Source: a virus | Reading direction: 5' to 3' (one strand) | Virus record (IMG/VR): IMGVR_UViG_3300050500_000499 | DNA: 48,915 nt | In this document: one piece after another, positions 3,887 to 32,730 of the stretch | Layout of the letters: each line of letters begins with the position of its first letter | Position numbering within the stretch: the first letter of the stretch is position 1 | Notes under the pieces: model-generated | What the model was told of the DNA's origin: nothing | Database searches by the model: none | The model's input: the letters and a program-made list of their open reading frames with translations, nothing else | Program-made: the position numbers and the translations under genes

Positions 3887-4519
3887 ATGACTTTCACCAT
3901 GAACGCCGAACTCCACCCCGGAACCAAGTCGTGGCGCCCCACGCGCATCCGCTATTGGTATGAGTCGATTATCGACCAACTGCTGATCGATCCTTCGCTG
4001 AGCCAGCGCGAAATCGCCCGCCGCCTTGGCCGCAGCGAGGTGACGATCGGCACCGTGATGAACAGCGACATCTTCCGCGCCCTTTACGAGCAGCGGCGGA
4101 CCAAGGTTAATGCCGAGCTTCAGGAAAAGATCAATAGCCGATTGCTCGGGCTGGCCATCGACGCCATCGACATCACGCACGAGAAGTTGAAGCTCCAACG
4201 CGACAAGATTCCGTTCGAGGACCTGGTCGATGTCACGGATAAAACGCTCACGAGGCTCGGCTACGGGACCGCGAAAGCGGGCGGGCAAACAGCCGTCGTC
4301 GTCAACAACACGACGCAAATTGTTGCGCCAGTTAGCACTGACCAACTCGAGGCTGCACGGGAAAAATTCCTGAACTTGCAGCGCGCAAAGCTTGTAGCGG
4401 AGCCGGCCCTCCCCGAAGGGGAAAGCGCGCCCTCCGAGGATCTCGCGGCGGAAGTCGAGAAAGAGAATGTGGAGCTCGATCTCGCGGACGCCATCCCGCC
4501 TGGAGCAGAGCTGCTCTAA
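3887..4519 (+). CDS. HTH DNA-binding protein, candidate small terminase subunit, 210 aa.
   Basis: LSQREIARRLGRSEVTIGTVMN is a helix-turn-helix. It is followed by a helical middle region and an acidic tail. The reverse ORF 3785..4534 is a GC-rich shadow. Confidence 0.55.
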   Translation: MTFTMNAELHPGTKSWRPTRIRYWYESIIDQLLIDPSLSQREIARRLGRSEVTIGTVMNSDIFRALYEQRRTKVNAELQEKINSRLLGLAIDAIDITHEKLKLQRDKIPFEDLVDVTDKTLTRLGYGTAKAGGQTAVVVNNTTQIVAPVSTDQLEAAREKFLNLQRAKLVAEPALPEGESAPSEDLAAEVEKENVELDLADAIPPGAELL

Positions 4520-5073
4520 TGACAGAGGCACCATTAGAGCCAGCTCTATATCTAGGGGTCAGCGCTCCTGCCACCAGCAGCGCCGCCCCCTTGCTCCTTC
4601 CGCCGCGAGGCTTTAAGCCGGCAGGAACTCCGTTCTATGTTGAACCGTGTGCTAATCCTTATACACATCGCAGCAGAAGCACGAAGGTCCAAAAGGCAGG
4701 ACTGGCATATGAGAAAAAGGCGAAGGATTTCCTCCGCCGCCGCTTTGGCTCCCGGCTCGACCTCGGACCTTGGTACAAGTTCTTCGACGGCCACCGGACG
4801 CGATACTGCCAGCCCGACGCCGTTGTGCAGGATGAGGCATTGGGAATTTTGATTGTCGAAATCAAGTTGCGCTTTTCCGATCTGGCGTGGTGGCAGTTAA
4901 AGGAACTCTATGCTCCGGTGATTCGGAAATATTTCCAGGTAAAGCATTTGCGTCTGCTCTGTTTGTGCAAGTCGTTTGATCCGGCCGTCGTGGTGCCGGA
5001 AATCGTGCCGCTCATCGATAACTTCGATCCTCGCATCGAGGATTGTGTTTACGCCCAACTTTGGAGGCCCTAA
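4519..5073 (+). CDS. PD-(D/E)xK nuclease-fold protein, 184 aa.
   Basis: CQPDAVVQDEALGILIVEIKLR gives PD...ExK with a 14-residue spacing. TAATG start/stop overlap with the HTH gene. Confidence 0.55.
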   Translation: MTEAPLEPALYLGVSAPATSSAAPLLLPPRGFKPAGTPFYVEPCANPYTHRSRSTKVQKAGLAYEKKAKDFLRRRFGSRLDLGPWYKFFDGHRTRYCQPDAVVQDEALGILIVEIKLRFSDLAWWQLKELYAPVIRKYFQVKHLRLLCLCKSFDPAVVVPEIVPLIDNFDPRIEDCVYAQLWRP

Positions 5074-5369
5074 TGGCCAATGCGCTCGTTGCTGAAATTG
5101 CGGACATGGCGAACATTGGTGGGATGGTCGGCCAAGTTCCAGCATATCCGCCTATTGCCGAGCAGGTGCTGGCAATTGGGAGCGAGGTCAAGTCTGCCGC
5201 CTTCAATAATTCGACGCGCTTCATTCGGCTGTATGCTGAGTCTGCCTGCCATATTGCTGTGGGCGAGGACCCGACGGCGACAACGTCGATGACCAAGCTG
5301 GGGGCGGGGCAGACCGAATACTTTGGCGTGCGGCGCGGCTACAAAATCAGCGTCATCGCGGGAGTGTGA
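5073..5369 (+). CDS. Hypothetical protein, 98 aa.
   Basis: ATG at 5073 follows a GGAGG RBS and overlaps the upstream TAA. The track start at 5043 lies inside the upstream gene. Confidence 0.6.
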   Translation: MANALVAEIADMANIGGMVGQVPAYPPIAEQVLAIGSEVKSAAFNNSTRFIRLYAESACHIAVGEDPTATTSMTKLGAGQTEYFGVRRGYKISVIAGV

Positions 5370-5533: not shown

Positions 5534-5629
5534 ATGATCTACGGACTCGGCTATTTGACTCTGGTGCTGCTCTGGCTAGGGCTGGGGCTCGGTCTGTGCC
5601 TGCTGATAGGAGGCTCGAATGCAAATTAA
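5534..5629 (+). CDS. Possible 31-aa single-TM peptide.
   Basis: MIYGLGYLTLVLLWLGLGLGLCLLIGGSNAN. The ATG lies 1 nt after the previous stop and the ORF overlaps the next start by 11 nt. It is short, so uncertain. Confidence 0.35.
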   Translation: MIYGLGYLTLVLLWLGLGLGLCLLIGGSNAN

Positions 5630-6116
5630 TCAAGGAACCAGTGTCAGCGATGCGCTCTTGCGCATTCTGTCTGATCCGGTGAAAACGAAGCAAGAGCTTG
5701 AGCGCCTCGAGGGAATTCGGATCGACGCCGAGGCTTCGATTGCGAAAGCCGAGGAGGCCCGCAAACAGGCTGACGCTACGGCGGCCGCTATCGAAAAAGC
5801 GCAAGCGGAGCACAAAGCACAAATCGAGGCGGGCAAACGCTTGCTCGATGATGGGCTAAAGGCGGTCCAGCAAAAGGAGCAGGACTTGGTTAGGCGGGAA
5901 AAATTGCTCGCAGATCGGCAGCAGGAGAACGAGTACAAGCTCTCCTCGATTGCCGACGCCGAGTCGAGGCTCGACAAAAAGGCCGTCGAGATCAATGAGC
6001 GAATGGAGGATATTCGCATAAAGGAAAGCGCGCTGGCGGCGCAGAGTAAAGCGTTGGAACAGCGCGAGCTCGAACTCAAGAATAGGTTCGATCAACTCCG
6101 GCAGCTTGCCGGCTGA
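5619..6116 (+). CDS. Coiled-coil protein, 165 aa.
   Basis: AGGAGG RBS. The sequence is dominated by E/K/A/Q/L heptad-like stretches. Confidence 0.65.
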   Translation: MQINQGTSVSDALLRILSDPVKTKQELERLEGIRIDAEASIAKAEEARKQADATAAAIEKAQAEHKAQIEAGKRLLDDGLKAVQQKEQDLVRREKLLADRQQENEYKLSSIADAESRLDKKAVEINERMEDIRIKESALAAQSKALEQRELELKNRFDQLRQLAG

Positions 6117-6143: not shown

Positions 6144-6560
6144 ATGTCGAAAGCTGACGGATTCGAAACTTCGCTGCTCCAGCTTCTGTTCACGGCCACC
6201 ACGATTGTGGGGGTGGCGAGCGGAATCACGGGCTCTTATTGGCTCTCGCTACATTTCGCCGATCCAGGCGAGGCGGGCAACCAGGCAAGCTCTGAAACGG
6301 GCTACGGCGGTTATGCACGCCAGAGCGTTGCGCGCACGACAGCCGGCTTTACGATAACGGGTTCGCAGGTGACGCTCACGGCCAGCGTCACCTTTCCGCA
6401 GAGCACAAATACGGCCAGCACGATCACGCATTTCGGCGTGGGCACTGTTTCGCAAGGCTCGACCACGCTGTTCTATAGCGGAACCGTAACGCCCAACATT
6501 ACGATCAATACCAACGTCACACCTGCGCTCACCACCGGGACAAACATAACGGAGGACTAA
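6144..6560 (+). CDS. Conserved phage protein, fiber- or virion-associated type, 138 aa.
   Basis: SLHFADPGEAGNQASSETGYGGYARQ resembles the LHTxDPG...YARQ motif of a widespread small phage protein family. The C-terminal half is Thr-rich. Confidence 0.5.
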   Translation: MSKADGFETSLLQLLFTATTIVGVASGITGSYWLSLHFADPGEAGNQASSETGYGGYARQSVARTTAGFTITGSQVTLTASVTFPQSTNTASTITHFGVGTVSQGSTTLFYSGTVTPNITINTNVTPALTTGTNITED

Positions 6561-6866
6561 ATGGGAACGCCACTGACTCCGTCGCAGCTTGCGCATATCG
6601 CCGCGAAAACGAATGAGAGGGGCGCCGAATTCGAGCATCCCTACACTTTTGTGTCGGCAAATGCCGGGGGCGGCGACACGCTGATCCAGATCACGGCCCA
6701 TGTCCTGGTCCAAGACTTCAACGAAACTGGCCAGGACCGAATGGTCAAGGGGTTTTGGGCCAGTTATCCCGAGGGGAATCCGGTCGACATTCCGGCGGTC
6801 AATGCGACGATCGAGGGTGTGCTCGATAATGTGGAAAAGCGGATAAAGCAGGACATTCGTGCCTGA
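6561..6866 (+). CDS. Hypothetical protein, 101 aa.
   Basis: GGAGGA RBS, with the ATG directly after the upstream TAA. Confidence 0.6.
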   Translation: MGTPLTPSQLAHIAAKTNERGAEFEHPYTFVSANAGGGDTLIQITAHVLVQDFNETGQDRMVKGFWASYPEGNPVDIPAVNATIEGVLDNVEKRIKQDIRA

Positions 6867-7080
6867 TGTCGGACAAGGGGTCAAAGTCTATGTGGCGCCA
6901 GACTTCGGGCGTCAAGACGCCGTCGTTGTTGCTGTTTACGCCGACGATGTAATTGACGCTCGCGCCGTCAAAAGTGGTGAATTGATTCAGAGCGTCGTTC
7001 CTGCTATTCGTGGGGACGACGTTTTGTCGTATTGGGCTCCTCTACCGGAAGATTTTATTCCGGGAAGCGAGGGACATTAA
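6859..7080 (+). CDS. Hypothetical protein, 73 aa.
   Basis: GTG start overlapping the upstream stop. The next gene starts immediately after its own stop. Confidence 0.5.
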   Translation: MPDVGQGVKVYVAPDFGRQDAVVVAVYADDVIDARAVKSGELIQSVVPAIRGDDVLSYWAPLPEDFIPGSEGH

Positions 7081-9378
7081 ATGGCCTTCGCAAGTATTGG
7101 TGCTCTTGGCACTAATCAGAGCAAAACAGCTAATCAAACTAGTATCGTTTTGACGACGACTGCTGCTGCGTCGGCAGGTTCGCTCGTCGTCATCGTGGTT
7201 GCAGTCGATAACGATAATTCAGTCGATCCACCGGATGGTGCAAGTTTTGCTCGACTTCTTTCGGTTTCTGATAGTGGTGGGAATACTTGGACGACTGACG
7301 CTGTTGGTGGTGGCGGCACCTTTATGCAGGGTGCTATTGAAACCGGGTCGTCCTCGACGCAAGCGTGGGCAACGGTCGCAGTTGCCTATAGCGTTTTGAC
7401 GACTGGTATTGCTAATGGCGGTACTATCACTGCGAGCTTCAACACGGCGAACACCAGCCGTGATGCCTCTGCTATTCTTGCATGGAATTTCTCAATAGGG
7501 GCTGGCAACACTGTTTCTGATGACGGCATGGCAACTGGTGTTTCTGCCACAGGCGCCATTGCGCCAATAGATGTTACCACTAGCGCGACCGAGCATCTTC
7601 GCTTTGTTGGGTGCGCGCAAGAGTCAAATACTACTACGGCGTGGACACCCACGACCAACTTCACGAATATGCCCGGCAATCAAACGAGCGGCGGTGGTTC
7701 TAACGCTAACATGGGCGTTCGTGGTGAGTTCCGTATTGCCAGTGTCACCAGTGCGACCACAGCGCCGAATCCTTCTGGTTCCAATGGTGACAACTCAGCT
7801 ATTTATATTGCATTTAAGGAAGTGACTGGCCCGGCCACTGGGGCTGGAGCTAGTAGTGGTACTTGTACTGTTACTGGTGTCGGACAGAGTCGTGTTCCAG
7901 TTCCCGGCTCTGTGGTTGGGACCTGCGTAGTTAGTGGCGTTGGAGCTTCAAGGACGACGGCAATAGGAAGTGCCGCTGGCACATGCACTGTTACTGGTGT
8001 TATTCGTGCCTTTATATTCTCTGTGGGATCGGCTGCCGGAACGTGCACAGTTACAGGAATCGGAGTATCGAATACTGCGGTCGTAGGGTCGGCCGCAGGG
8101 ACGTGTACTGTTACTGGTGTCAGCCAGTCGCTGGCGCAGGCCGCAGGAAGCGCGAGTGGGACTTGCACTGTTACCGGCGTCAGTCAGAGCTTAGCACAGG
8201 CCGTCGGAAATGCGGCGGGCAGCGGCACTGCGACAGGAATCGGGGCCTCCACAGTTCCTGCTGTTGGCTCTGCTGCTGGAACGTGTACGGTTTCCGGAAC
8301 TATTCTGGCGATAATCTTCGCTGTTGGGTCTGCGGCCGGAACTTGCGTGGTAACGGGAATTGCGCCGCAAGGCGCGAGCGAGGGCGCAGGCAGCGCAGCC
8401 GGGACATGTACTGTTACCGGAATTGGCGTTAGCACAACGGCAGTTCCAGGATCGGCTACGGGAACGTGCACAGTTACTGGAATTGGTGTTTCTACTGTCG
8501 CTGCGGTCGGATCGGCTGCGGGGACCTGCACCGTCAATGGTGTTGGGACTGGTTATTATTTCGTTGTCGGCTCGACTGCTGGCTCCTGCACTGTTACTGG
8601 AATCGGAGTCTCGACTGTCACGGCTGTGGGCTCTGCGGCAGGGACATGCACTGTAACAGGAATCGGGGCGGCACGAACGGCTGTTGTCGGCTCGACTGCG
8701 GGAACTTGCACGGTAACGGGAATTGGTGTTTCGACGGTTCCGGTTGTCGGAAATGCGGCCGGCACGAGCACAGTGACGGGAATTGCGTTCGAGCAAAATT
8801 CGGGGGCGGGCAGCGCTGCGGGAACCAGTACGGTTACTGGAATCGGAGTGTCGCGCGCCGCCGTGCCGGGGTCAGCGGCCGGAACCTGCACGGTAAGCGG
8901 CATTGGTTCCTCCTCGACGCAAGCCGTCGGTTCCGCCGCTGGCACTTGCATTGTGACTGGCGTCAGTGTTTCGCGCACGACCGCCGTTGGCAGTGCAACA
9001 GGAACTTGTACGGTTACTGGAATCGGGGTCAGTCGCACGACTGCTATTGGTTCCGCAGCTGGAACGTGCACCGCCACTGGAATTGGTGCAAGCACTGTTC
9101 CGGTGGTCGGCAATGCGGCGGGTTCCTGTATCGTAACGGGTGTCGGGCTCACGATTGGTGGGGCGACAGAGACTACGGGCAGCGCCGCGGGAACCTGCAC
9201 GGTGACTGGCGTCGGGATGTCCACAGTACCGGTGGTCGGGAATGCGAGCGGTAGCTGCACGGTAACGGGAATTATTGTGGATGCGAATGCTCCGGCTGGC
9301 AACACGGGGTTGGCGGGCAGTCATGGCCACTTCTTCATCACGATGGGAAAAATGGGATGGATCAAAAAGGCGGCCTAG
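7081..9378 (+). CDS. Repeat-rich putative virion fiber or decoration protein, 765 aa.
   Basis: GAGGGA RBS. An S/T/N-rich N-terminal domain of 255 aa is followed by 24 tandem units of about 20 aa (consensus GSAAGTCTVTGIGVSTVPVV) and a 26-aa tail. The reverse ORFs across this region are shadows. Confidence 0.8.
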   Translation: MAFASIGALGTNQSKTANQTSIVLTTTAAASAGSLVVIVVAVDNDNSVDPPDGASFARLLSVSDSGGNTWTTDAVGGGGTFMQGAIETGSSSTQAWATVAVAYSVLTTGIANGGTITASFNTANTSRDASAILAWNFSIGAGNTVSDDGMATGVSATGAIAPIDVTTSATEHLRFVGCAQESNTTTAWTPTTNFTNMPGNQTSGGGSNANMGVRGEFRIASVTSATTAPNPSGSNGDNSAIYIAFKEVTGPATGAGASSGTCTVTGVGQSRVPVPGSVVGTCVVSGVGASRTTAIGSAAGTCTVTGVIRAFIFSVGSAAGTCTVTGIGVSNTAVVGSAAGTCTVTGVSQSLAQAAGSASGTCTVTGVSQSLAQAVGNAAGSGTATGIGASTVPAVGSAAGTCTVSGTILAIIFAVGSAAGTCVVTGIAPQGASEGAGSAAGTCTVTGIGVSTTAVPGSATGTCTVTGIGVSTVAAVGSAAGTCTVNGVGTGYYFVVGSTAGSCTVTGIGVSTVTAVGSAAGTCTVTGIGAARTAVVGSTAGTCTVTGIGVSTVPVVGNAAGTSTVTGIAFEQNSGAGSAAGTSTVTGIGVSRAAVPGSAAGTCTVSGIGSSSTQAVGSAAGTCIVTGVSVSRTTAVGSATGTCTVTGIGVSRTTAIGSAAGTCTATGIGASTVPVVGNAAGSCIVTGVGLTIGGATETTGSAAGTCTVTGVGMSTVPVVGNASGSCTVTGIIVDANAPAGNTGLAGSHGHFFITMGKMGWIKKAA
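7846..9297 (+). repeat. In-frame tandem array with a period of about 60 bp, 24 units.
   Basis: Units counted from the translation (aa 256-739). Twenty-one of 24 units keep the Cys. Codons differ between units at wobble positions (for example ggaagtgccgctggcacatgcact versus ggatcggctgccggaacgtgcaca). Confidence 0.85.
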
Positions 9379-10919
9379 CCGGAGCGAAAGCTGAGGTGCA
9401 AGGAGTCAGAGTTTCGCTTGCGGAACTGGTGAAGCTCTGCGCCGTCGATGATGATTTGTTCGCGCGTACCTTTTTCCCGCAGGCGACAAGGCAGAAAAGT
9501 CCGAAAATGCACGCGGCGGTCGATGGACTGCTGAATGATCCGAAGTCGAGGCTGCTCAATGTCATCCTCCCACGAGATTTTGCCAAAACGACCAAGCTTC
9601 GAATGTTTGCGGCCAAAAGGATTGCGTATGGGTTGTCGCGAACTATCCTCTATGTGGCGGCGAGCGAAATTAAGGCTACACAAAATATTCAATGGTTGCG
9701 GAATCGGCTTGAGGAAAAATTGGGCGCGGATGGCAAGAGGACGAAGCCACTATTGGCTTCCGTGTATGGACTCGATAAAGGGAAAAAGTGGACGGAAACG
9801 GAGCTGGAAATCCAGCATCGGTTGCTTGCGCATCCTATCTGGGTCTTGGGTGTGGGTATTACTAGTGACAGTATCCGTGGTATTAATTTCGATGATTATC
9901 GGCCTGATCTTATAATTCTCGACGATGTGCTCACGGATGAAAATGCTGCGAGCAAGGAGCAGAGGGAGAAAATAAATGCCCTCATTATGGGTGCGGTCAA
10001 AAACTCTTTGGCGCCTATCGCGGACGATGCAAACGCAAAAATTGTCGCCCTTAACACCCCCCAGCATAGTGACGATTTTGTTGCACGTGCAGAAAAGGAT
10101 ACGGAGTGGAAAACTGCGCGATACTCGTGTTGGACCAAGGAAACGGAAAGCTTGCCTACAGAATTCCAGGTTTCGGCGTGGCCCGAACGACATCCCACGG
10201 AACAACTTCGTCGTGAGAAGCTGGCAGCTGTTTCTGCGAACCGCCTCTCAATCTTTATTCGTGAAAAGGAGTGTAAGGTTGTCGCACGCGAAACCTGTAT
10301 GTTTTTGCCGGAATGGCTCCAATTCTATTCTGAAGCACCGGCGAGCGGTATCACGGTCTTGGCAATTGATCCTGTTCCGCCGCCGACTCCAGGCATGGAA
10401 AAGCGGAGGGAGTTATCTACCGATTTCGAGGCTCAAGGTGTTTGGCGCCGGTACGGAGATAAATTCTATCTTCTCGAAATGAGCTTGATGCGAGGGCATC
10501 AGCCGAATTTCACGGCGAGCAAATTTTTTGAATTGGCGATGCGATGGAGGATAAATTGGGCGATAATCGAAAGCGTGGCGGCGCAAAAGTATTTGAAATA
10601 CATTCTGGAACAGGAAATGATTCGGCGGAAACAGTGGTTCAACATTCAACTGTTCGAGGATATTCGGTCGAAAACAGTGAGGATAAACAGCATCCTGTCC
10701 GGCCCCGCGTCGAATGGCCGTCTGTTTGTTCGAGCAGAGCACGCGGAGCTGATCCAGCAGTTCACAGATTACCCTAACGTTGAGCACGACGACGCTCTCG
10801 ACATGGCGGCGATTGGGGTTTCGAGTCTTTTGAAGCCGTGGATGGATTCGATGGACGATAAAGGGTTCATCGATAATAGCACTGTTCCGAAACTCCGACT
10901 CGTGAGGGGATGTCCATGA
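9357..10919 (+). CDS. terL: Terminase large subunit, 520 aa.
   Basis: ILPRDFAKTT is Walker A-like. DLIILDDVLTDE is Walker B. The nuclease half carries LAIDPV and HDDALDMAAIG. Confidence 0.85.
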   Translation: MDQKGGLAGAKAEVQGVRVSLAELVKLCAVDDDLFARTFFPQATRQKSPKMHAAVDGLLNDPKSRLLNVILPRDFAKTTKLRMFAAKRIAYGLSRTILYVAASEIKATQNIQWLRNRLEEKLGADGKRTKPLLASVYGLDKGKKWTETELEIQHRLLAHPIWVLGVGITSDSIRGINFDDYRPDLIILDDVLTDENAASKEQREKINALIMGAVKNSLAPIADDANAKIVALNTPQHSDDFVARAEKDTEWKTARYSCWTKETESLPTEFQVSAWPERHPTEQLRREKLAAVSANRLSIFIREKECKVVARETCMFLPEWLQFYSEAPASGITVLAIDPVPPPTPGMEKRRELSTDFEAQGVWRRYGDKFYLLEMSLMRGHQPNFTASKFFELAMRWRINWAIIESVAAQKYLKYILEQEMIRRKQWFNIQLFEDIRSKTVRINSILSGPASNGRLFVRAEHAELIQQFTDYPNVEHDDALDMAAIGVSSLLKPWMDSMDDKGFIDNSTVPKLRLVRGCP

Positions 10920-15821: not shown

Positions 15822-16772
15822 GTGTCGAAAAAGCCTCGCACAGTTTTCATCGCAATTCCGAGTTATAGTCAAAAGGTCTCGATTGCGACGAGTCATTCGC
15901 TAATGAATGCGATTGGCGAGATTACGGCGCTAGGGGCGCAGATTCACGTCGAAACGCTGTGTAATGACGCGCTGGTGGCGAGGGCGCGCAATACGCTTTT
16001 TGCGATGGCTTTTGAACGCGAGTACGATGATCTGGTCTTTGTCGATGATGATTTGGGGTGGGAACAGGGTGCGATCAAGCGGTTGCTCCAGCATCCGGTC
16101 GAGTGCGTTGGGGGGCTGTATCCGATTCGGAGGGAGGGCGAGGAGTATTTGTTCCGTTGGGATGTGACCAAGGGGCAGGCGCAAATCGATCCGACGAATG
16201 GATTGCTCGAGGTGGATAGCATTCCGACGGGATTCTTGAGGTTGACCAAGTCTTGTATTCGGAAAATGATTGAGGCGTATAGCGCCAGGGAATACTTGGA
16301 TGATTCGAGGAATCCAAAAAGCGCTTGGGCGGTGTTCGATTGTATGTTTGTGCCTGGTGACGAGAATGATAAAAGGGGAAGGTATTGGGGCGAGGACTTC
16401 GTATTCTGTCAGCGGTGGCGGCATATCGGCGGTCGGGTATGGTGCGATCCTTGGCTTAAGTTTCGACATGTCGGGGAAAAGGCATTCATCGGGTGCTTTG
16501 GGACCTACAAGAAACGGGAATTGCTGGCTGTTCAAAAGAAGCAAAAATTGCTCGATGAAGGAGAAAAGCAGGGTCAATCCCCGATCCAGGCGGTGACTGG
16601 AGCGAATCTGCCTCCTGGCTACGCGGAGGCTCAGGCGCAAAAGCGGAAGGAGGTGGTTGATCGAGCGAACGGGAACGTTACCCAACAGGAAAGCACAACT
16701 GAAAACCAACAGAACGTGTTGATCCAACGGCCTCCAGGTTCGGCCGGTAATGGTGCGGGCCTGGAGGCTTAA
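15822..16772 (+). CDS. GT-A fold glycosyltransferase-like protein.
   Basis: FIAIPSY, ARARN, LVFVDDDL (DxD) and YWGEDFVFCQRW motifs. I prefer the GTG at 15822 (GGAGAG RBS) because the track TTG at 15771 lies inside the terminator hairpin. The C-terminal 90 aa are low-complexity. Confidence 0.65.
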   Translation: MSKKPRTVFIAIPSYSQKVSIATSHSLMNAIGEITALGAQIHVETLCNDALVARARNTLFAMAFEREYDDLVFVDDDLGWEQGAIKRLLQHPVECVGGLYPIRREGEEYLFRWDVTKGQAQIDPTNGLLEVDSIPTGFLRLTKSCIRKMIEAYSAREYLDDSRNPKSAWAVFDCMFVPGDENDKRGRYWGEDFVFCQRWRHIGGRVWCDPWLKFRHVGEKAFIGCFGTYKKRELLAVQKKQKLLDEGEKQGQSPIQAVTGANLPPGYAEAQAQKRKEVVDRANGNVTQQESTTENQQNVLIQRPPGSAGNGAGLEA

Positions 16773-16791
16773 AAAGGGAAGGGAAGCGGAA

Positions 16792-17685
16792 ATGGGACTC
16801 GTGTATTGTTGTCCGACGAGGGGTAAGCCGGAGTACCTCGACGACATGGTTTGGGAGTCGATGGAAAAGGCGAGGCTGCCGGATACAAAATTCGTCATAG
16901 GGATCGATGAGGATGAGCAAGAGCTTTACGCGAATTCTAAGCTTCGAAAGGACGAACGTGTCATTTGGAGTTGCGAGCCAAGAGAAGATTCGCTCGGAGC
17001 AAAGTTCAATCGCGTTCAAAGCGTCGGAGCGCAAATCGAGGACGCCGATTGGTTCATCATGGGGGTCGACGATTTGGCCATCCAGAGTATTGCGTGGGAC
17101 GTCAACGTTTCGCAATTAGCGGAACACTATCCGGATGGGATCGGCTGCGTCAACTTTGGTCGGCAGTGGAATGAGCCAGGAATGCCCGCGTTCCAAATGT
17201 TGAGCAAAAAGTTTATTGAACTCAATGGATTTTTCATGGCGCCGTTTTTCCCGTTCTGGTGGCATGATACGTGGAATTTGGAAATGAGCAGGATGATCGG
17301 GAGGGATTGCTATCTGGATGTCGAGGTGCGGTATCCGCAAAAGGAACCGATGACGCCGCGACGCGATATTAGTTTTTGGGCGCTCTACTTCGATCTGATG
17401 CGGCCGGCGAGGGTGCAAAAGGCGAGGGAGATTATCCTGGTCAGCGATTCTCCGGCTTTTCTCAAGTATCAGCTCATCCAGCGATTGGATACGCTGGTGC
17501 AGGAGTTTGAGCAGCGGAATGCGCGCTGTCGTGATCCGCTATGGACGATGAAGTTCCAGGCGGAAAGAGTCACAGATCAGCTCGATGCGAGGCACGAGCG
17601 GCTGCTCGCGAAAGCGCAAAGTGTGTTGAGGGCGATTGAGCAGCACTCGGCGGAGGCGTTGGAAGAGGAGAGTAGGGCGGCGTAA
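16792..17685 (+). CDS. Second putative glycosyltransferase-like protein.
   Basis: ATG at 16792 follows aagggaagggaagcgga. VYCCPTRGKPE, IGIDEDE and FIMGVDDL (DxD-like) suggest a GT-A-like Rossmann core. The assignment is weaker than for the first gene. Confidence 0.45.
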   Translation: MGLVYCCPTRGKPEYLDDMVWESMEKARLPDTKFVIGIDEDEQELYANSKLRKDERVIWSCEPREDSLGAKFNRVQSVGAQIEDADWFIMGVDDLAIQSIAWDVNVSQLAEHYPDGIGCVNFGRQWNEPGMPAFQMLSKKFIELNGFFMAPFFPFWWHDTWNLEMSRMIGRDCYLDVEVRYPQKEPMTPRRDISFWALYFDLMRPARVQKAREIILVSDSPAFLKYQLIQRLDTLVQEFEQRNARCRDPLWTMKFQAERVTDQLDARHERLLAKAQSVLRAIEQHSAEALEEESRAA

Positions 17686-23589: not shown

Positions 23590-24024
23590 ATGAAGCAGGA
23601 GCAGGTATATTTGCTTGAACCGGAGCAGTTTCGGCATTATTGGCCGGACATTCGGAATGCGATTCGGAGGATTCCGCAATACGACGAACAGTTTGCGGAT
23701 GAGGAAATGTTCGAGGCGGCGGTAAAAGGGGCCCTACAGTTTTGGGTTTTATCCGACGGCGCAATTCAATGCATATTGATTACCGAAATCCGGTCGAATC
23801 GGAAGGGAAAAGTGTTGCGCTTCCTCGGGGCCGTCGGGCAGGCGTGGGACGTTTTTCATCCGAGCCTCGAAAGCATTTTAGACCGCGTTTGCATCGGGCT
23901 CGGATGTGAGAGGATCGAGGTTGTGGCGGCCCGGCGGGGCTGGAGCAGGAAGCTGAGGGATATGGGATTCCGGTTCTCGCATGAGATTCTTGTGCGGGAC
24001 GCGAAGCGGGAAAAGGAGAATTGA
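23590..24024 (+). CDS. Hypothetical protein, possibly GNAT-like fold, 144 aa.
   Basis: VVAARRGWSRKLRDMGFRF resembles the C-terminal beta-alpha element of acetyltransferase-fold proteins. The similarity is weak. Confidence 0.3.
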   Translation: MKQEQVYLLEPEQFRHYWPDIRNAIRRIPQYDEQFADEEMFEAAVKGALQFWVLSDGAIQCILITEIRSNRKGKVLRFLGAVGQAWDVFHPSLESILDRVCIGLGCERIEVVAARRGWSRKLRDMGFRFSHEILVRDAKREKEN

Positions 24025-24025
24025 A

Positions 24026-25186
24026 ATGGGCAGCGGCGAGACGACACCGGCAACGACCACCACGCAAACCACGATTAGTCCGGAGCAACGCCAACTGCTC
24101 AACATGGCGATGCCCTATTTGCAACAGTTCGGGCAGAGCAATATAACGGCGCCGGGGCCGGAGTCGATTGCCGGGTTCAATCCGACGCAGGTTGCGGGTC
24201 AAAATCAGGTCCTGGGTTCGACCATGGCCATGAACAACATTTTGACCGGAGCGGGCCAGAGCAATCAATTTCTCACTTCTGGCGCCGCGCTCGACCCTCG
24301 GTCGAATCCTGGACTCCAGGGAACGATTGATGCCAGCGTTCGACCGATTTATCAAAATCTTGGAGAAAGTGTGCTACCGGCGCTTCGTGGTCAGGCGATC
24401 GTCGGTGGCGCCGGTGTTCCTGGAGCCAATTATGGAGGAAGCCGGTTGGGGATCGCGGAAGGTCTGGCGGCCCGCGGGGCGAGTCAGGCGGCGGGTGACA
24501 CGGCGAGCAAGCTTGCCTATCAAGGATATAATACGGGGCTCGACGCCATGCTCAAGAGTATGGGATTGGCCCCCTCGATTGCACAGAGTCAGGCAATTCC
24601 GGGTTTGACCACAACGGCGGTGGGCGATACGCAGCGGAGCCTGGCGCAGGCGCTGTTGAGTGCTCAAACGGGGCAGAGCCAGTTCGAACAGTATTTGCCT
24701 CTGCTAAAGGGTCAAGCATTTTTGGGTGGCTTGAATGCGATTCCTGGGGCTGGCAGCGTCACTACGGGGCCTGGAGTAACTCAGCCGAGCGGATTGCAAA
24801 CGGCACTTGGTATTGGTGCAACGGGGGCCGGAATTTTGGGTGGGCTTGGAGCCCTGGGGGGCACGAGTGGATTAGCGGGCCTATTACCTTTATTCACATC
24901 CAGCGACATGCGCTTGAAGCGCGATATTGTCCGGATTGGAACGCTGTTCGATGGGACGCCCGTTTATCGTTATCGGTATGCAGGCAATCAGGCGACGCAT
25001 ATCGGCGTCATGGCGCAGGATATAGAGAAGTTTGCGCCGGAAGCTGTGACGGAAATTGGCGGATTCAAGTTGGTCAATCTCGACCTTGCAACGCGTAGAG
25101 CTATGGAGGAACAAAATGGTATCGCCGCTCGATCCACAAATGGCGTTCGATCCGATGCCGATGTCGCTGTGGGACAACCTGGCTGA
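24026..25186 (+). CDS. Virion protein with a C-terminal peptidase S74 intramolecular-chaperone domain, 386 aa.
   Basis: AAGGAGAA RBS. The body is Gly/Ala/Gln-rich. SSDMRLKRDIVRIG...VYRYRY...HIGVMAQDIEKFAPEAV matches the SDxRxK autoproteolytic chaperone signature (from 24899). Confidence 0.7.
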   Translation: MGSGETTPATTTTQTTISPEQRQLLNMAMPYLQQFGQSNITAPGPESIAGFNPTQVAGQNQVLGSTMAMNNILTGAGQSNQFLTSGAALDPRSNPGLQGTIDASVRPIYQNLGESVLPALRGQAIVGGAGVPGANYGGSRLGIAEGLAARGASQAAGDTASKLAYQGYNTGLDAMLKSMGLAPSIAQSQAIPGLTTTAVGDTQRSLAQALLSAQTGQSQFEQYLPLLKGQAFLGGLNAIPGAGSVTTGPGVTQPSGLQTALGIGATGAGILGGLGALGGTSGLAGLLPLFTSSDMRLKRDIVRIGTLFDGTPVYRYRYAGNQATHIGVMAQDIEKFAPEAVTEIGGFKLVNLDLATRRAMEEQNGIAARSTNGVRSDADVAVGQPG

Positions 25187-25763: not shown

Positions 25764-26563
25764 TGGCTGATCAGAATTTTCTTGACCCGCGCGACGAGCA
25801 AATGATGCGGCAGGACACTGGTCCAGGGCTAGCGGATCGCTGGAGGGGTTGGCTGGCCAGTCCGCAGAATCAAGCCTTTCTGATTCAGGCGGGCACCGCG
25901 ATGCTCCAGCCGAGGCCAGAGGGTCAAACGGCCATAGGGCAAATTGCGGGCTCACTTGGAGCGGGGGGTGAGGCCGCTGCTCGTGTTTCGAAGCAGGAGG
26001 AGGAAGCGACGGAGGCTGCGTCGAGGCAGGCGTATCGGGCGTCGAATGCTGATGCCAATCAGCAAAAAGGGGAAGCGGCACTCTTGCGCGGGCAAGCGGC
26101 GCTAGATCGAGCCGCCACGCTTGCGGAAGGAGGCGGTCGGCCTATGACCGAGGCGCAGCGCCTTCAGTTTCGGTTGAAGGCGCAGACGAAATATAGGGAT
26201 TGGATCGCGAAGCCAGAGGACCCGATTGGTGAGCCTCTGTTGAAAATTCTGGGGGCGAAAACAAAGGTGGATGTAGAGCAAAATCCGGAGTTGCGGCGGC
26301 GGGCCCTCGAATGGTTTTACGAGGGCGCCCCCGATGCAGCGCCGGCGTCGCGCGCCGTTCCGCAGCAGAACCAAACGCCAGTTCCAGGCAACAGCCGGAT
26401 CATGACTCCGAGCGAAGGAGTGGCGAGCGGTGCTTATAATGCGACGGAAGTGTCGAATGCCGTTGAGGCGATTTATGCGGGCAAACGGAGTCGCGAAAGC
26501 ATTCTGCAGCAATATGAGCAAAGGACGGGGCGGCCACGCTCTGACGTACTAGGACAGCTATAA
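25760..26563 (+). CDS. Internal virion protein candidate, 267 aa.
   Basis: GGGAGGGG RBS. Helical and A/Q/E/R-rich. Lies immediately upstream of the giant protein. Confidence 0.5.
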   Translation: MMADQNFLDPRDEQMMRQDTGPGLADRWRGWLASPQNQAFLIQAGTAMLQPRPEGQTAIGQIAGSLGAGGEAAARVSKQEEEATEAASRQAYRASNADANQQKGEAALLRGQAALDRAATLAEGGGRPMTEAQRLQFRLKAQTKYRDWIAKPEDPIGEPLLKILGAKTKVDVEQNPELRRRALEWFYEGAPDAAPASRAVPQQNQTPVPGNSRIMTPSEGVASGAYNATEVSNAVEAIYAGKRSRESILQQYEQRTGRPRSDVLGQL

Positions 26564-29500
26564 TGGCGAATCCGTATTTGGAGCCGGAGGCAGAGGAACA
26601 ACCTGCGCCCCCACAGCCGTCGGCGGATCGTGGTCCGAGCCCGATGAATCCCTATCTGTATCAGGCAGAGGGGAATGCAAATCCGTATATGGATGCTCCG
26701 CAGCCGCAGCCGTCGCAAATGGAAAATGCGGCGTTGAGTCCGAGTGCGGGCCCTGGCTATTTCGATGTGGCTGTTGATTCGGCGATGCGCGGCGGCGCTC
26801 GCGGAATGGAAAAGGTTTCCAATTTCTATGAAGGCATTAAGCGGAAGTTGAGTGGCGAAACCTTTTTTCATGTCCCGGAGCAGCCGGAGGCGACGGCGGC
26901 CAACCCTGAGGTCGAGGGCTTGCTCAACACGCCGATGCAACAGGGGTGGACTAGTCCGAAGTGGTGGGCCGCTCAGGCCGTCAATGCGATTAGTGAAAGT
27001 TGGCCGGAAATGGTTGCGGCGGGGCTCGGCGGTCGGGTCGGCGGCATGCCTGGAATGGTTACGGGGATGTCGGCGGGGAGTGGATTGTTGTCGCTGATTC
27101 CAGCGTTCAAGGAGGCGAAGGCGAAAGGCTTGAGTGACGACGACGCAGTAACGGAGGCGGCGAAGGTTGCAGCGGTCAATGGTGGCACGGCGATGCTCGC
27201 AGGAGTTGCGGGCATGCAAGGCTTCACCGGGGCGCTGATGCACGGAAAGACCGTCGAAGCGCTCAAGGTCCCGATCAAGGAAGCCTTGGTCCAGCTCGGT
27301 CTGGTCCAGCCGACGATTGCGGTGGCCGGCTCTATTGCAAGGGGAATTGCGCAAGGCAAAGAGCTTCAGGATATCAGTCCGTGGGACGTGGCACACGAGG
27401 CGTCGCTCGGCGTTTTGACCCAAGCGCCGTTCACTGGTTATCAGATTCTGGCTCTGTCGAGGCCCCGCCGTGCGCCGAGCCCGCCGGCCGGAGTCGAGCA
27501 TTTGCAGGGGGCGACGGAGGGTGTGCCGGCGCGCGAAATTCCGGTGCAGGATATTCCTGCTGGTGAGAGGATGCCAGCGCCGGAGGGATGGATTGCGGAG
27601 CAAAATACACCGCAGGTTCAAGCGCCGACGTTTTATTCGGCGATCAAGAAATTTGTCGAGGAAAAGGGACAAAATACTGCCACGGGAGAGCAGTGGAGCG
27701 GCACGATTCGGAATGCGCCGGGGATCAAGCTCGAGGAATTCGAAGCGCTGGGGCTTCCAGCATTTTTAGGAGACGAAAAAGGGAGGATTTCGAAAGCGGA
27801 TTTGCTAGCGCATATTGAGGAAAATCAAATCCAGTTGCTGGAAAAAGAATTGACTTCTGGTCCGCCGCTGAAGTGGACACAAACAGAATCTGGATTGCTG
27901 GTGGCCGATGCTCCAGAGGGGACGCGCTACGTTATTGGTCCGCGTCCGGACGGTACGTATACCGTTGCAAATTCGCGCGGCGGTCGCGTTCAGGCTCGGG
28001 ACATAGCTTCGGCCCAAACGCTGGCACAGCAAATTGAAGCACAACGAAGATCTGGACAGGGAGGCGAAACTCAATATGGGGCTTATACGCTGCCGGGACC
28101 AAAGGAGAAGTATGGCGAACTCTTATTCAAGCTGCCAGACGAGGTGGCGAAGCTGGAGGATCAATATAATAGGCTCAATGAAGAATTCATGGCGGCCAGA
28201 GCCGACAATCCACTTTCGACAAGGACGCAGGAGCTTGCGAAGCAATTGCAAGAGGTGGCGGGAAGGTATGCGCAAGAGCGTGAGGGCAAGTTCAAGGCGC
28301 CGCACTTTGGCGAGGAGGGCCGCAATCTGCTGGCTCATGCAAGGTATACTAGCCGCCTCGACAGAGATGGCAAGAATACGCTATTCGTGGAGGAGATTCA
28401 AAGTGATTGGCATCAGAGGGGGAGAAAGCAGGGATACACTGATCCAGAGAAAGTAGCGCAATTAGATCAAGTACGAGAACGGATAAATCAGCTTAGGGAC
28501 AGCACTGATGGCATACTGAATAGCCTTGACGATTTGGGATTCGACAGTACTAGTCGGGCGCGTGCAGCTCTCGTGCGGGAGGGACTAGAGTCTTGGGATA
28601 TTCCTCCAGAATATAGACCCAAGTTACAAGAGTATGTTGATACGCGGCGAGAGTTCCTTCGCCTGCATGATGAGGTTGGTACGGCTGTTGCGGATGCGCC
28701 CTTTAAAAGCTCTTGGGACGAGTTGATGTTCAAGCGCCTCTTGCGCTATGCTGCCGACAATGGATATGAGAGGATTTCGTGGACGAATGGAGATCAGCAA
28801 ATTGCAAGGTATCCCGGCTTGGGCGAAGTCCAAGCGCGGGGCATGGTCGATTTTTATGGCAGCTCGAATAAGATTGGCGCATTGGACAAGATTGCCCAAA
28901 AGTGGGCGAAGAAGCTCGGCATGGATGGAGGCGAGACGACGTTCGATGTGGGGCCACAGGCGATTCGAGCAGACGAGCCTATGGCGAATACGATTGCTGG
29001 TCAAAGACAGCTTTTGAATGCGACCAGGAATCGATATATCAATGTCTCTCCGGAGGCGGGGAGCCGCATCAAGCGGGGGCTGCCGCTATTCGAGCAGAAG
29101 GTTGCTGCACAGGTCATCGATCCGGGTGTGGCGATGGGGGAGGTACCGGGAATCCGCGCGGCGGCGCGCCAGGCAATCAAGGTTTTGGAAAACGTTCGAA
29201 AGGCGATGGGACTCGAAGGGACAGATTTGCGCAAAATCGAGTTGTATCATGATCCAAACGACACGAGTCGAGGCTGGTATCATCCGGACGAGAAAATCAT
29301 TCGCATAAATCTGGCGAATGCACAATCGCCGGAGCAGATTTATTCGACGCTCGCCCACGAATTCGGACATCATTTGATGTACGACGTTTTTGATAAATTG
29401 CCGCCGGAGAAAAAAGTTGCAATTTTCGACGATTACGACAAGTTCGTAATGCGGATGAAAACTGATCCGAGTGCCGCGAACGCCCTCGTGCGACGTAGAG

Positions 29501-32500
29501 CTCCGATTTCTGAGTTCAATGAGCCAAGCTCGACTAGTTGGAGGAATTTGCGTTGGATCGACATGCCACAAGCGGAGCGCGAGTATTGGTTCGGTTTTAA
29601 TGAGTGGTTTGCGGATAACGTGGCGCGGTGGGCGACCACAGACGCCAAGCCTATGTCTGTTGTCGATAAGTTTTTCTCGTCGCTGGGCCGCGTTATCCGG
29701 GATGTGGTGCGCGCCGTTCGACAGGCGGTGACCGGGGAATCGTTCGAAGCGGCACCCGCAATGCGCGCATGGCTCGACAGTTTCATACAGCAGAATGGAG
29801 TGTTTGGACCGGAGGTGGCCAGCACCATGCACTTGCAAGGATTGCTGAAAAATGCTCGTGCGTTGCAAACCGAAGGGACGGAGGCACCGGCTACCCCGCA
29901 AATGGGGAGCACGGGAGGTGGAAGGGCGATCCTCGACGGCGCGGGCGCTGGGGCCGAAGGTCGAGCCTTTGCGGCGCACGGGGATCGGATGAATTGGTTT
30001 TATAAGGTTGCACTTTCGCTTCAGCAGATTGCGAAGCGGAACGAGCACATTTTGCCGCTTCAGCTTTATCGGGAGTTGACCGATTTGCTGAACCTCGAAA
30101 CCATAACGGCATTGAATCAAGCTGATATTAATGTCATGCGGCCGTGGAAGCACTTGAGCCGCGAGGAAGGCGAGGCCCTCGGCCGATTCATCGACGATTA
30201 TGCAAATGGTCGGTTCATGGACCCGAAGGAATTGGCGAAGGACGGACTGCGGAGGCCCACCGATACTGAGCTGCGAGCTCTTATCAAGAAACATGGATTG
30301 ACGGAAAGGGGGGCGAAGCAATTTGGCGCTATTATTACTGATTTGCGAAATGATTTGATGCGATACAAGGACATATTGATGGCGGAAACTAGTCGCATCC
30401 GCGATCCGATCGAACAAGCGCAAGCGATGGAGCGCGTCGAGGCGCAGATTCGTGCAATGGACAGCATTCCGTTCATGCCCTTTGCTCGATTTGGCGATTA
30501 CACCGCCACGACGTATACAGTTGATGGAAAGGTGAAGGAATTCTATCGGTTTGAAACGCAAAAGGCGAGAGATCGCGCCGTTGAGCAAATGCAGGCCGCC
30601 GCGGCGCAGGGCGAACAGGTGAAATCTGGGTTCCTGCACAAGGATGTGCATCCGTTGCTCGGGATGCCCCCAGGCATGCTCGATCGGATTGCAGACAAAT
30701 TGAATTTGAGTCAAAATATGAGGGATTCGATCGACCAGCTCAAGTTCGAATATGCGCCCGCGCAAAGCTTCAGGCATCATTTCCAGCAAAAGGATTTCAC
30801 GCCGGGCTATTCACAAGACTGGCAGCGCGCCTACGCGCAATACAAGTTTCATGGGTCGCATTATTTCGCTCGGATCAAATATGCCGATCAAATGCGAGAT
30901 ATGATTGCGGAAATGACCAATGAACGCTTGACCCGGAACGACCACACGAAGCTCGACCAGATTCGGAATTTGATGACAGAGCACTTGGACACCGTGCTGA
31001 ATCCGAAGGCGGATTATGCTCGGTTGAAGGGAGCGATGTTCCACTTCCACATGGGATTCAGAGTCTCCACCGCCGCGATCAATTTGACTCAGGTCCCGCT
31101 GGTGGCGTGGCCGAATTTGAGCAGTCATTTCGGCGATTTTAAGTCGGCCGCCGCACTGATTCGAGCAACGGGAAAATCGAACACTCTGTTCCGCCGCATG
31201 ACCACGTCGCATATGGCAGCGGACGAATTGCGGATTCTGCAACAGGGCGCCGACGACGGATTGACTGCTCCAAAACAAGCGTATGAACTTGGGGCGTTGA
31301 GCGAAGGGCGGAATCTGTTCAAGGGGCTTGGAAAGGGAATTGAGCGGACCTGGCAGGAAGGCGCGGAGCTTTCCGCTAAAATGTTCGAAATGAGTGAGCA
31401 ATGGGGGCGGACGACGACCCTGCTCGGTGCCTATGATTTGGCGAAAAAGGATCTCGGTTCGAAGTTCGTCCAGAACAGCATTCAGGCGAACCAGTTGCTT
31501 TATCTGCGACTCCGGGAAAAGAATTGGAGTCACGAGGAAGCCGCAGCATACACCGCCGCCACGGTCGCAGTCAAGGAATCCATGTTCGAATATGGGTATC
31601 ATGCGCGGCCGAAAATGTTTCAAGGCGGACTTGGCGCCGTTTTGCTTTTTAAGAGCTTCCAGCAGAACGTGCTGTTCAATTTGTGGAATAATAAGGGAAG
31701 CTTTGTCCGGCAAATGCTATTGCTCGGCGGCGCCGCCGGCCTGGCCGGACTGCCGTTTTCTGAAGACATTAGCTCGATCATGAAAATGCTGAGCAAGCGA
31801 TTTTTGTCCAGTGATTTCGACCTCGAGGACGAAGTGCGGAAGCAAGTTCGAGCATTGAGCAATGGAGCCATTTCGCCTGATCTGGTGATGCACGGCGTTG
31901 GACGTTATGCGTTCGGCGTCCCGCATGTTTTGGATTTGATGGGCTCGACGCTCGGTTTAAGGGACAAAAATGAATACGCTGGAACGTTCCCGGAGCCGCG
32001 GGGCGTTTCGATTAGCCGCAGCATTGGGATGGGACAAGTTTTGCCGTTCGACGTAGGTAGAGCCTTCTCGCCCTCGAAGAGCCCGGAGCGGAATGAATTG
32101 CAGCAAATCCAAAGGGCGAGCGGTGCAGCGTTCGGAATAGGATTCTCGCTTTACAATTTCGCGACGAGCAATCCATTCACAGAGCCAGACAGGAAGAAAT
32201 GGGAGCAGATAATGCCTGCCGCAATTCGCGACGTGAGCACGGCGTGGCGCTTTGCAGAGGAAGGCGGCGAAAGGAATCGACGCGGGAACCAGATCATCAA
32301 GTTCGACCCTTATGATACGATGGGGGCCGCAGAGATTTTAGCAAGGGGTCTTGGCTTCCAGCCGACCAGGCTCGTAGCCCGACAGGAAAACATTGCTGCG
32401 AAAGCGGAGGCGGTGGAGTATTGGGAAATCAGGCGCCAGTTGCTCATGAGGCAATATTGGAGCGCCGTGAAGGACAACAATCCGGAGCAGATCGAGTCGG

Positions 32501-32730
32501 TGATCGAAGCCGTAAAAGCGTTCAATCGGGGCCTGCCTGAAGAAGCAAAAGCGAAAGCAATAACAGGAACGAACTTGCGACAATCAATAGTGAGAAGAGC
32601 ACAAGATAGAGCTCGACAAGAATCGGGGCTGCCAACGGGGCGGAGAGACACAACGCTTTATCAAAGCATCGACGCGCTTTATCCCGAAGGCGCGCCTCCC
32701 GGCTTGCAAGACATTCGACGAGTGCAGTGA
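26563..32730 (+). CDS. Giant polyvalent internal-virion or ejection protein, 2055 aa.
   Basis: HEFGHH zincin motif at 29356-29373. PFARFG (PLxRFG-type motif) at 30478-30495. LFVEEIQSDWHQRG box near 28390. Gly-zipper hydrophobic segments near the N-terminus and around aa 1700. TAATG start overlap. Confidence 0.8.
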   Translation: MANPYLEPEAEEQPAPPQPSADRGPSPMNPYLYQAEGNANPYMDAPQPQPSQMENAALSPSAGPGYFDVAVDSAMRGGARGMEKVSNFYEGIKRKLSGETFFHVPEQPEATAANPEVEGLLNTPMQQGWTSPKWWAAQAVNAISESWPEMVAAGLGGRVGGMPGMVTGMSAGSGLLSLIPAFKEAKAKGLSDDDAVTEAAKVAAVNGGTAMLAGVAGMQGFTGALMHGKTVEALKVPIKEALVQLGLVQPTIAVAGSIARGIAQGKELQDISPWDVAHEASLGVLTQAPFTGYQILALSRPRRAPSPPAGVEHLQGATEGVPAREIPVQDIPAGERMPAPEGWIAEQNTPQVQAPTFYSAIKKFVEEKGQNTATGEQWSGTIRNAPGIKLEEFEALGLPAFLGDEKGRISKADLLAHIEENQIQLLEKELTSGPPLKWTQTESGLLVADAPEGTRYVIGPRPDGTYTVANSRGGRVQARDIASAQTLAQQIEAQRRSGQGGETQYGAYTLPGPKEKYGELLFKLPDEVAKLEDQYNRLNEEFMAARADNPLSTRTQELAKQLQEVAGRYAQEREGKFKAPHFGEEGRNLLAHARYTSRLDRDGKNTLFVEEIQSDWHQRGRKQGYTDPEKVAQLDQVRERINQLRDSTDGILNSLDDLGFDSTSRARAALVREGLESWDIPPEYRPKLQEYVDTRREFLRLHDEVGTAVADAPFKSSWDELMFKRLLRYAADNGYERISWTNGDQQIARYPGLGEVQARGMVDFYGSSNKIGALDKIAQKWAKKLGMDGGETTFDVGPQAIRADEPMANTIAGQRQLLNATRNRYINVSPEAGSRIKRGLPLFEQKVAAQVIDPGVAMGEVPGIRAAARQAIKVLENVRKAMGLEGTDLRKIELYHDPNDTSRGWYHPDEKIIRINLANAQSPEQIYSTLAHEFGHHLMYDVFDKLPPEKKVAIFDDYDKFVMRMKTDPSAANALVRRRAPISEFNEPSSTSWRNLRWIDMPQAEREYWFGFNEWFADNVARWATTDAKPMSVVDKFFSSLGRVIRDVVRAVRQAVTGESFEAAPAMRAWLDSFIQQNGVFGPEVASTMHLQGLLKNARALQTEGTEAPATPQMGSTGGGRAILDGAGAGAEGRAFAAHGDRMNWFYKVALSLQQIAKRNEHILPLQLYRELTDLLNLETITALNQADINVMRPWKHLSREEGEALGRFIDDYANGRFMDPKELAKDGLRRPTDTELRALIKKHGLTERGAKQFGAIITDLRNDLMRYKDILMAETSRIRDPIEQAQAMERVEAQIRAMDSIPFMPFARFGDYTATTYTVDGKVKEFYRFETQKARDRAVEQMQAAAAQGEQVKSGFLHKDVHPLLGMPPGMLDRIADKLNLSQNMRDSIDQLKFEYAPAQSFRHHFQQKDFTPGYSQDWQRAYAQYKFHGSHYFARIKYADQMRDMIAEMTNERLTRNDHTKLDQIRNLMTEHLDTVLNPKADYARLKGAMFHFHMGFRVSTAAINLTQVPLVAWPNLSSHFGDFKSAAALIRATGKSNTLFRRMTTSHMAADELRILQQGADDGLTAPKQAYELGALSEGRNLFKGLGKGIERTWQEGAELSAKMFEMSEQWGRTTTLLGAYDLAKKDLGSKFVQNSIQANQLLYLRLREKNWSHEEAAAYTAATVAVKESMFEYGYHARPKMFQGGLGAVLLFKSFQQNVLFNLWNNKGSFVRQMLLLGGAAGLAGLPFSEDISSIMKMLSKRFLSSDFDLEDEVRKQVRALSNGAISPDLVMHGVGRYAFGVPHVLDLMGSTLGLRDKNEYAGTFPEPRGVSISRSIGMGQVLPFDVGRAFSPSKSPERNELQQIQRASGAAFGIGFSLYNFATSNPFTEPDRKKWEQIMPAAIRDVSTAWRFAEEGGERNRRGNQIIKFDPYDTMGAAEILARGLGFQPTRLVARQENIAAKAEAVEYWEIRRQLLMRQYWSAVKDNNPEQIESVIEAVKAFNRGLPEEAKAKAITGTNLRQSIVRRAQDRARQESGLPTGRRDTTLYQSIDALYPEGAPPGLQDIRRVQ

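Follow-up and report, generated by a model that had tools for sequence, protein, structure and literature searches.

In the 48,915-nucleotide viral DNA stretch IMGVR_UViG_3300050500_000499 (hereafter the window), the gene at 7081..9378 encodes a 765-amino acid (aa) repeat protein that is probably the rope of a beaded virion fiber, in which a jelly-roll head would be followed by 24 repeats acting as docking sites for Gp80-type beads and by a C-terminal anchor. The repeat architecture, the protein family to which it belongs, an invariant linkage to Gp80-type genes, and a 20-residue period common to otherwise unrelated repeats are observed. The features concerned are the following:

7081..9378, plus strand: repeat protein of 765 aa, the proposed rope of the Gp80-decorated fiber (ATG start; homologues in 630 clusters).
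7081..7845, plus strand: N-terminal globular domain (aa 1-255), the proposed distal head, predicted by AlphaFold2 (AF2) as an all-beta jelly-roll-type sandwich.
7846..9297, plus strand: array of 24 units (aa 256-739) with the consensus GSAAGTCTVTGIGVSTVPVV, the proposed bead-docking sites (from unit splitting, autocorrelation, and AF2).
9298..9375, plus strand: C-terminal tail (aa 740-765), ending in ...GSHGHFFITMGKMGWIKKAA, the proposed virion-proximal anchor, near-identical in the homologues P0001 and P0002.
6144..6560, plus strand: Gp80-type protein of 138 aa, the proposed bead subunit (PF23140, 1.5e-12; phrog_240; PDB 8jou chain a, E 5e-4).

Beads of this kind are known from phages Bas63, Sf14, and GP4, where dimers of the Gp80 fold (whisker or Fiber-1 proteins) are arranged end to end round a rope like beads on a string (PMC12609058). 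The rope passes through a groove of every monomer and completes its otherwise incomplete beta-sandwich (PMC12609058). In Bas63, it is an N-terminal extension of the immunoglobulin-like (Ig-like) collar protein, and its C-terminal end joins the collar (PMC12609058). In GP4, an independent protein serves as the rope and bears five dimers (PMC12609058), and attachment of Fiber-1 is by way of gp77, an Ig-like fiber-tail adaptor (PDB 8JOU; Zheng et al. 2023, as described in PMC12609058 and PMC11445570). The 8jou entry holds 10 gp80 chains and 3 gp77 chains.

By the same arrangement, each 20-aa unit of the window protein would form a short beta-hairpin or strand pair of tiny residues and slot into the groove of one Gp80-type subunit, completing its incomplete beta-sandwich. 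The 24 units would thus carry about 24 Gp80 subunits, i.e., 12 dimers, and the number of repeats would set the length of the fiber. The short conserved C-terminal tail would anchor the fiber to the virion, and the N-terminal jelly-roll domain would form its distal head, probably for binding to a surface or glycan. We infer this physical threading, stoichiometry, polarity, and head function from association and analogy. As in the collar whiskers of Bas63 and Sf14 (Felixounavirus), Gp80-fold dimers would be threaded on a rope whose C-terminal end lies at the virion; however, the Bas63 rope, a short extension at the N terminus of the collar protein, holds only two dimers, whereas that of the window would be large, independent, and equipped with a distal head. 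A long beaded fiber on a neck adaptor ring also occurs in a cyanophage, the Anabaena myophage A-1(L), whose bead-chain neck fiber consists of gp82-gp81-gp80 (PMC10966104), but its beads are trimers joined head to tail, with no rope, and its "gp80" is unrelated to GP4 gp80.

Re-splitting the open reading frame (ORF), with unit boundaries set at Gly anchors, bears out the 24 tandem units of about 20 aa that a preliminary description of this DNA had placed at aa 256-739: 22 of them are 20 aa long, one is 21 aa (at aa 416), and one is 23 aa (at aa 677), and a 26-aa tail follows the array. The Cys that had been counted in 21 units is likewise found in 21 of the 24, in every case at unit position 7; of the remaining three units, that at aa 376 has Gly there, and those at aa 557 and 577 have Ser. 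Outside the array, there is a Cys at aa 178 in the N-terminal domain. The periodicity is far above chance, with a BLOSUM autocorrelation peak of 2.42 at a lag of 20 compared with a maximum of 0.28 over 200 shuffles.

In all 12 contexts examined, a PF23140 Gp80-type gene (138-146 aa; the Pfam name is "Podophage GP4 fiber I protein gp80") is located beside that of the repeat protein or in its vicinity. The 12 comprise the window, L004, L006, L007, L008, L009, L010, L011, L012, MW202711, Microcystis phage Mae-JY04, and GP4 (gp80-gp79), and their backbones include SU10-type podophages (L006 and L007), a P22-type portal (L008), a myophage with Baseplate_J and a sheath initiator (L009), and a siphophage with a lambda-like tail tip (L011). 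Because Gp80 homologues are present in only 316 of 50,697 phage records, the linkage in 12 of 12 contexts is not a matter of chance. Homologues of the N-terminal domain that lack the repeat (P0123) or carry a 16-aa repeat (P0140) have no PF23140 neighbor even at E<=1. Upstream ORFs of ~140 aa in L013-L015, considered as possible cryptic relatives of Gp80, gave no PF23140 match, and BLASTP of those in L014 and L015 against the Gp80-type protein of the window revealed no convincing similarity. The Gp80-type neighbor, invariant in the contexts examined, points to a mechanism other than the ice-binding or adhesin beta-helix of which the preliminary description had been reminded.

The GP4 genome offers a direct comparison. 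Directly after gp80 it encodes gp79 (L003, 2206-3183), a 325-aa protein annotated as virion-associated, with no Pfam family. This protein contains ~10-11 Gly-rich repeats, with an autocorrelation peak at a lag of 20 (0.28, shuffle maximum 0.15), and its repeat count matches the 10 gp80 chains in 8jou. Flanked by the solved gp77, gp80, and gp81, gp79 is the obvious candidate for the rope gene; gp81 was considered for the same role and rejected, since it belongs to a different 12-fold assembly (8jov). BLASTP of the window repeats against gp79 yields an in-register, ungapped alignment of 69 aa (E = 1e-3 for a single comparison). GP4 and the window both have a PF23140 Gp80-type gene beside a 20-residue tandem-repeat protein in a virion module, as well as a separate Peptidase_S74 tail fiber. 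They differ in that the window protein has 24 near-perfect repeats, compared with ~10-11 degenerate ones in the candidate rope gp79, and an extra jelly-roll head of 255 aa.

A further pair is found in Mycobacterium phage Kwksand96 (L017), where the "minor tail protein" gp32 (3789-4949) is encoded immediately upstream of the Gp80-type gp33 (4980-5369). Like the window protein, gp32 has 20-aa repeats beside a Gp80-type gene, about eight of them (S/T-Q-x-L-x-L-x-K...), with a lag-20 peak of 0.96 compared with a shuffle maximum of 0.17; its repeat is, however, unrelated in sequence and located N-terminally, followed by a Gly-rich domain. As ~240 Mycobacterium phage records carry Gp80 homologues, the pairing of repeat and Gp80 may be common in actinophages. 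The repeats of the window protein, gp79, and gp32 are unrelated in sequence, yet all three peak at a lag of 20 and all three are encoded beside Gp80 genes. With three unrelated repeats sharing one period and one neighbor, the simplest explanation would be that the bead dictates the 20-residue pitch.

The window repeat itself belongs to a widespread family. Searches returned 170 word-index matches and, among 1.84 billion proteins, 630 cluster representatives at E<=1e-3 (clusters at 50% identity). Across 1,777 units extracted from 121 homologous proteins, the dominant unit spacing is exactly 20 and the consensus is G-S-A-A-G-T-[S/G/A/C]-T-[A/V]-T-[G/A]-V-G-x-S-x-x-x-x-V. Tiny residues (G/A/S/C) fill all odd positions, and larger or polar ones the even positions, without a break in phase, a pattern expected of a strand that packs into a groove. 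The array occupies the C-terminal half of nearly all 121 proteins and is followed by a short, lineage-specific tail. The preliminary description had not recognized the repeat family, and this is borne out: Pfam and PHROGs contain no family at E<=0.1 for the 765-aa protein, nor for the Mae-JY04 and MW202711 homologues, a PDB sequence search with the protein gave no match, and a profile of three family units matched the PDB only at chance level. The Pfam search also found no Peptidase_S74 C-terminal chaperone domain in the 765-aa protein.

Alternatively, the array could fold by itself, possibly as an oligomer, into either a long beta-hairpin meander or a thin beta-solenoid of two layers, to make a rigid fiber stalk, with the Gp80-type protein acting separately as a base adaptor, tip, or assembly factor. 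We consider this rather unlikely, although several observations speak for it. The unbroken alternation of tiny residues at odd positions with larger ones at even positions would likewise be in keeping with the core of a very thin solenoid, and the AF2 model of aa 440-740 is regular, with two 8-residue strands and 2-residue turns per unit and a predicted local distance difference test (pLDDT) score of 72-89. Such a hairpin for each unit is equally consistent with insertion into a bead groove. A Foldseek search of the full-length model against the PDB yielded nothing significant at E<=0.001, its best match being the beta-helix adhesin EtpA (E 0.48), and the BFVD matches are all uncharacterized long fiber-like phage repeat proteins with low TM; both the EtpA match, though not significant, and the BFVD matches would favor a stalk. 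Against a self-folding stalk stand the absence of a PDB fold match, the modest overall quality of the full-length prediction (41 sequences; mean pLDDT 61, predicted template modeling score, pTM, 0.45), and scores under 50 across much of the array's first half, whose repeats are near-identical. It would also leave unexplained both the company of Gp80 in every context and the common 20-residue period of unrelated Gp80-adjacent repeats.

Covariation within the family alignment does not favor stacked rungs either. There is a strong signal at i/i+20, that is, between the same position in adjacent units, but it disappears as an effect of adjacency once the order of units within each protein is randomized (position 7: 0.621 compared with 0.605, z = 1.7). 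It therefore reflects uniformity within each protein, not contacts between rungs, and we dropped covariation as evidence for deciding between a solenoid and a hairpin meander, treating it as a within-protein lineage effect. A uniformity that is independent of unit adjacency would fit a rope in which every unit meets the same partner. Hence, of the beta-solenoid rung proposed in the preliminary description, the beta-rich, repetitive character holds, while rung stacking finds no support in the sequence statistics; the structure prediction that it had called for does return beta strands, two per unit, but with uneven confidence.

The same description had seen in the T-C-T-V-T pattern a resemblance to TxT/TCT ice-binding or adhesin beta-helices. 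Read in this way, the protein would have a flat face of Thr and a functional ladder of Cys. The T-C-T-V-T pattern is present in most units of the window protein, the repeat region is predicted to be all-beta, and the ice-binding solenoids TmAFP (TCT) and InaZ (TxT) are likewise built from short, Thr-rich tandem beta repeats. Position 7, however, is Ser in 37% of the 1,777 family units, Gly in 34%, Ala in 20%, and Cys in just 7%, and a Cys-rich position 7 is confined to the window protein, P0001, P0002, P0043, and part of P0019. Judged from these counts, the Cys ladder is a quirk of one lineage and not a hallmark of the family. The ice-binding repeats of the TmAFP type are 12 aa long and have disulfide-forming Cys pairs, whereas the window repeat has a period of 20 and a single Cys. 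Searches of PDB sequences, with the family profile, and by fold gave no match to antifreeze or ice-nucleation proteins, and the gene context is that of a phage fiber module. An ice-binding or adhesin beta-helix of this kind is therefore scarcely credible, and the lineage-specific Cys/Thr pattern is one that can be misread as a solenoid of the ice-binding type. In the proposed rope, the Cys at position 7 would be a small buried residue interchangeable with Ser, Gly, and Ala. A disulfide between the rope Cys and the bead was considered and ruled out, as the Gp80-type protein of the window contains no Cys.

At the DNA level, Tandem Repeats Finder (TRF) detected no array across the repeat region. 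Units of the window protein share on average 56% identity in protein (76% in a 12-aa core) and 55% in nucleotides, identity falls to 0.30 at third codon positions, and exact DNA repeats reach 19 nt at most. Identical residues are encoded by identical codons at a frequency of 0.314, compared with 0.317 +/- 0.015 in random draws from the codon usage of the phage itself. Synonymous sites between units are fully saturated, and the peptide is under purifying selection. The wobble-position divergence and the selection on the peptide noted in the preliminary description are thus both upheld; its further suggestion of selection against recombination between units is not, since codon identity equals the random expectation and no such additional selection is needed. 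Active avoidance of recombination is ruled out on the same grounds.

Units are nonetheless positionally orthologous with those of the close relatives P0001 and P0002: an aberrant "VIRAFIFSV" unit matches at 18 of 20 positions in these relatives, and the last three units are conserved. The comparison of repeat numbers in relatives that had been advised gives 24, 24, and 15 units for the window protein, P0001, and P0002, with the change falling in the middle of the array. These data bear on another explanation, in which the protein is non-structural, or else a linker of low complexity and mostly disordered, and its repeat has no specific partner. Its composition, mostly Gly, Thr, Ala, Val, and Ser, would agree with this, as would the low AF2 confidence at aa 141-262 and over much of aa 348-419 in the full-length model. 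A strict 20-residue period conserved in 630 clusters, positional orthology of units despite saturated synonymous sites, and the location of the gene in a virion module with conserved neighbors make such a linker very unlikely. Several long ORFs overlap the repeat region (7803..9330, on the minus strand and in the other plus-strand frames), for example, 8556..9305 (minus strand, 249 aa) and 8466..9254 (plus strand, 262 aa); they are repetitive themselves and look like by-products of the repeat composition, not genes.

The polarity of the proposed rope is suggested by its two ends. The C-terminal tail is near-identical in P0001 and P0002, despite the different N-terminal head of P0001, and related endings of the form ...KxAA are found in P0003, P0007, P0028, and MW202711; moreover, the C terminus of P0052 is a gpL-like tail-tip domain. 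These endings argue for a C-terminal anchor, a polarity that matches Bas63. Among P0001-P0120, "...AA" C termini are common (KKAA, KRAA, LLLAA, LMALAA, and RRAA), and there are other recurrent tail classes such as "...RSMKRRYG" and "...SSGFSFFGV". The differing tail classes may correspond to different virion anchors.

With the tail taken as the virion anchor, the jelly-roll domain would be the distal head. N-terminal heads vary across the family and comprise Laminin_G_3, GDSL esterase, apiosidase-like, CBM_4_9, and F5/8-C domains in addition to the domain of the window protein. Modeled alone (AF2, 32 homologues), the latter is predicted with good confidence (pLDDT 85, pTM 0.87) to be an all-beta, jelly-roll-type sandwich. 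Its best Foldseek matches are the jelly rolls of PRD1 P3 and PR772 (E ~4e-4, TM<=0.29), a weak similarity that assigns no function. Homologues of this domain (P0121-P0162) include stand-alone proteins of ~250 aa, and fusions of the domain to other tandem repeats are of at least three kinds, with periods of 20 ("GSFALTGQxAKLTQ"), 22 ("LFTDTDTFYA", carried by P0128), and 16 ("RRAFVSFAELExP").

Several observations weigh against the rope proposal. The C-terminal half of the array is predicted confidently on its own, which may mean that the array is self-sufficient. The family unit hidden Markov model (HMM) matches gp79 with E = 3, so homology to gp79 is not significant, and gp79, gp78, and a 112-aa GP4 neighbor are absent from the PDB sequence set. 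Bas63 apparently has fewer rope residues per bead, making the stoichiometry uncertain. In L010, the Gp80 gene lies ~5 kb from the repeat protein, and P0122 has a different 20-aa repeat with no detectable Gp80 neighbor, being either a counter-example or the partner of a divergent bead. Finally, in contrast to GP4, no Gp77-type collar (PF23148) was detected among the scanned ORFs of the window or in the shown Pfam records of related loci, and neither the 101-aa nor the 73-aa ORF lying between the bead and rope genes resembled the GP4 collar gp77 in BLASTP; a divergent or different anchor may take the place of the Gp77 collar.

Beyond the window, we tentatively suggest that the 20-residue repeat could be a general Gp80 docking unit, one per bead, a generalization that we hold to be possible, if somewhat short of probable. 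The result would be a modular, bead-sheathed fiber with a length fixed by the number of repeats (8 to >30 units) and with swappable heads (lectin, esterase, glycosidase, or jelly-roll), encoded by a two-gene module that moves between podo-, sipho-, and myophages. At least three unrelated repeats would have converged on the pitch imposed by the bead, or diverged while keeping it, and a gene would be assigned to the GP4 rope.

The Gp80 bead-on-rope fiber type is already known from cryo–electron microscopy (cryo-EM) work of 2023-2025; what would be new is a rope that is large and independent, with 24 near-perfect repeats and a head at its distal end. The protein belongs to a widespread, modular family that carries no annotation. 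If correct, the proposal would give a function and a testable assembly rule to a family that numbers at least 630 clusters (50% identity) and has members of up to ~3,000 aa. It would also provide a specific partner protein for hundreds of Gp80-carrying phage genomes, including the ~240 mycobacteriophage records, account for the way in which phages build long accessory fibers that can be adjusted in length and present lectin or enzyme heads, and supply a candidate gene for the rope in the GP4 structure.

The genes around the proposed bead and rope are arranged as follows:

5619..6116, plus strand: protein of 165 aa, rich in Ala, Glu, Lys, and Gln, probably a coiled coil, upstream of the bead gene.
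6561..6866, plus strand: ORF of 101 aa between the bead and rope genes, with no Pfam, PHROG, or PDB match.
6859..7080, plus strand: ORF of 73 aa directly upstream of the repeat protein, with no significant match.
9357..10919, plus strand: terminase large subunit, terL (phrog_38, 1.8e-60).

The terL start overlaps the 3' end of the repeat-protein ORF by 22 nt. The location of the gene in a cluster of virion genes upstream of terL, as noted previously, is borne out. ORFs of 165-172 aa occupy the position of the 165-aa protein in L004, L006, and L007, and this protein may be a third member of the module; in L004, an 85-aa ORF holds the position of the 73-aa ORF. A promoter and terminator scan of the gene cluster found nothing above chance.

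Farther downstream, a separate tail fiber (23981..25186, plus strand) carries a Peptidase_S74 intramolecular chaperone domain (1.5e-8), like GP4 gp76, and the phage therefore has at least two fiber systems. Within the structural module there is a glycosyltransferase-like gene (16750..17685, plus strand; phrog_14945, 1.8e-10); MW202711 carries a glycosyltransferase at the same place, and a Glyco_transf_9 gene is present in L010. Virion proteins might carry glycans, the Thr/Ser-rich repeats perhaps among them. A 2,055-aa ORF at 26563..32730 (plus strand), with no Pfam match, is presumably an internal virion or ejection protein. At 36075..37823 (minus strand), a single ORF combines a uracil-DNA glycosylase (UDG)-superfamily domain with the 3'-5' exonuclease and part of the polymerase domain of a family-A DNA polymerase.

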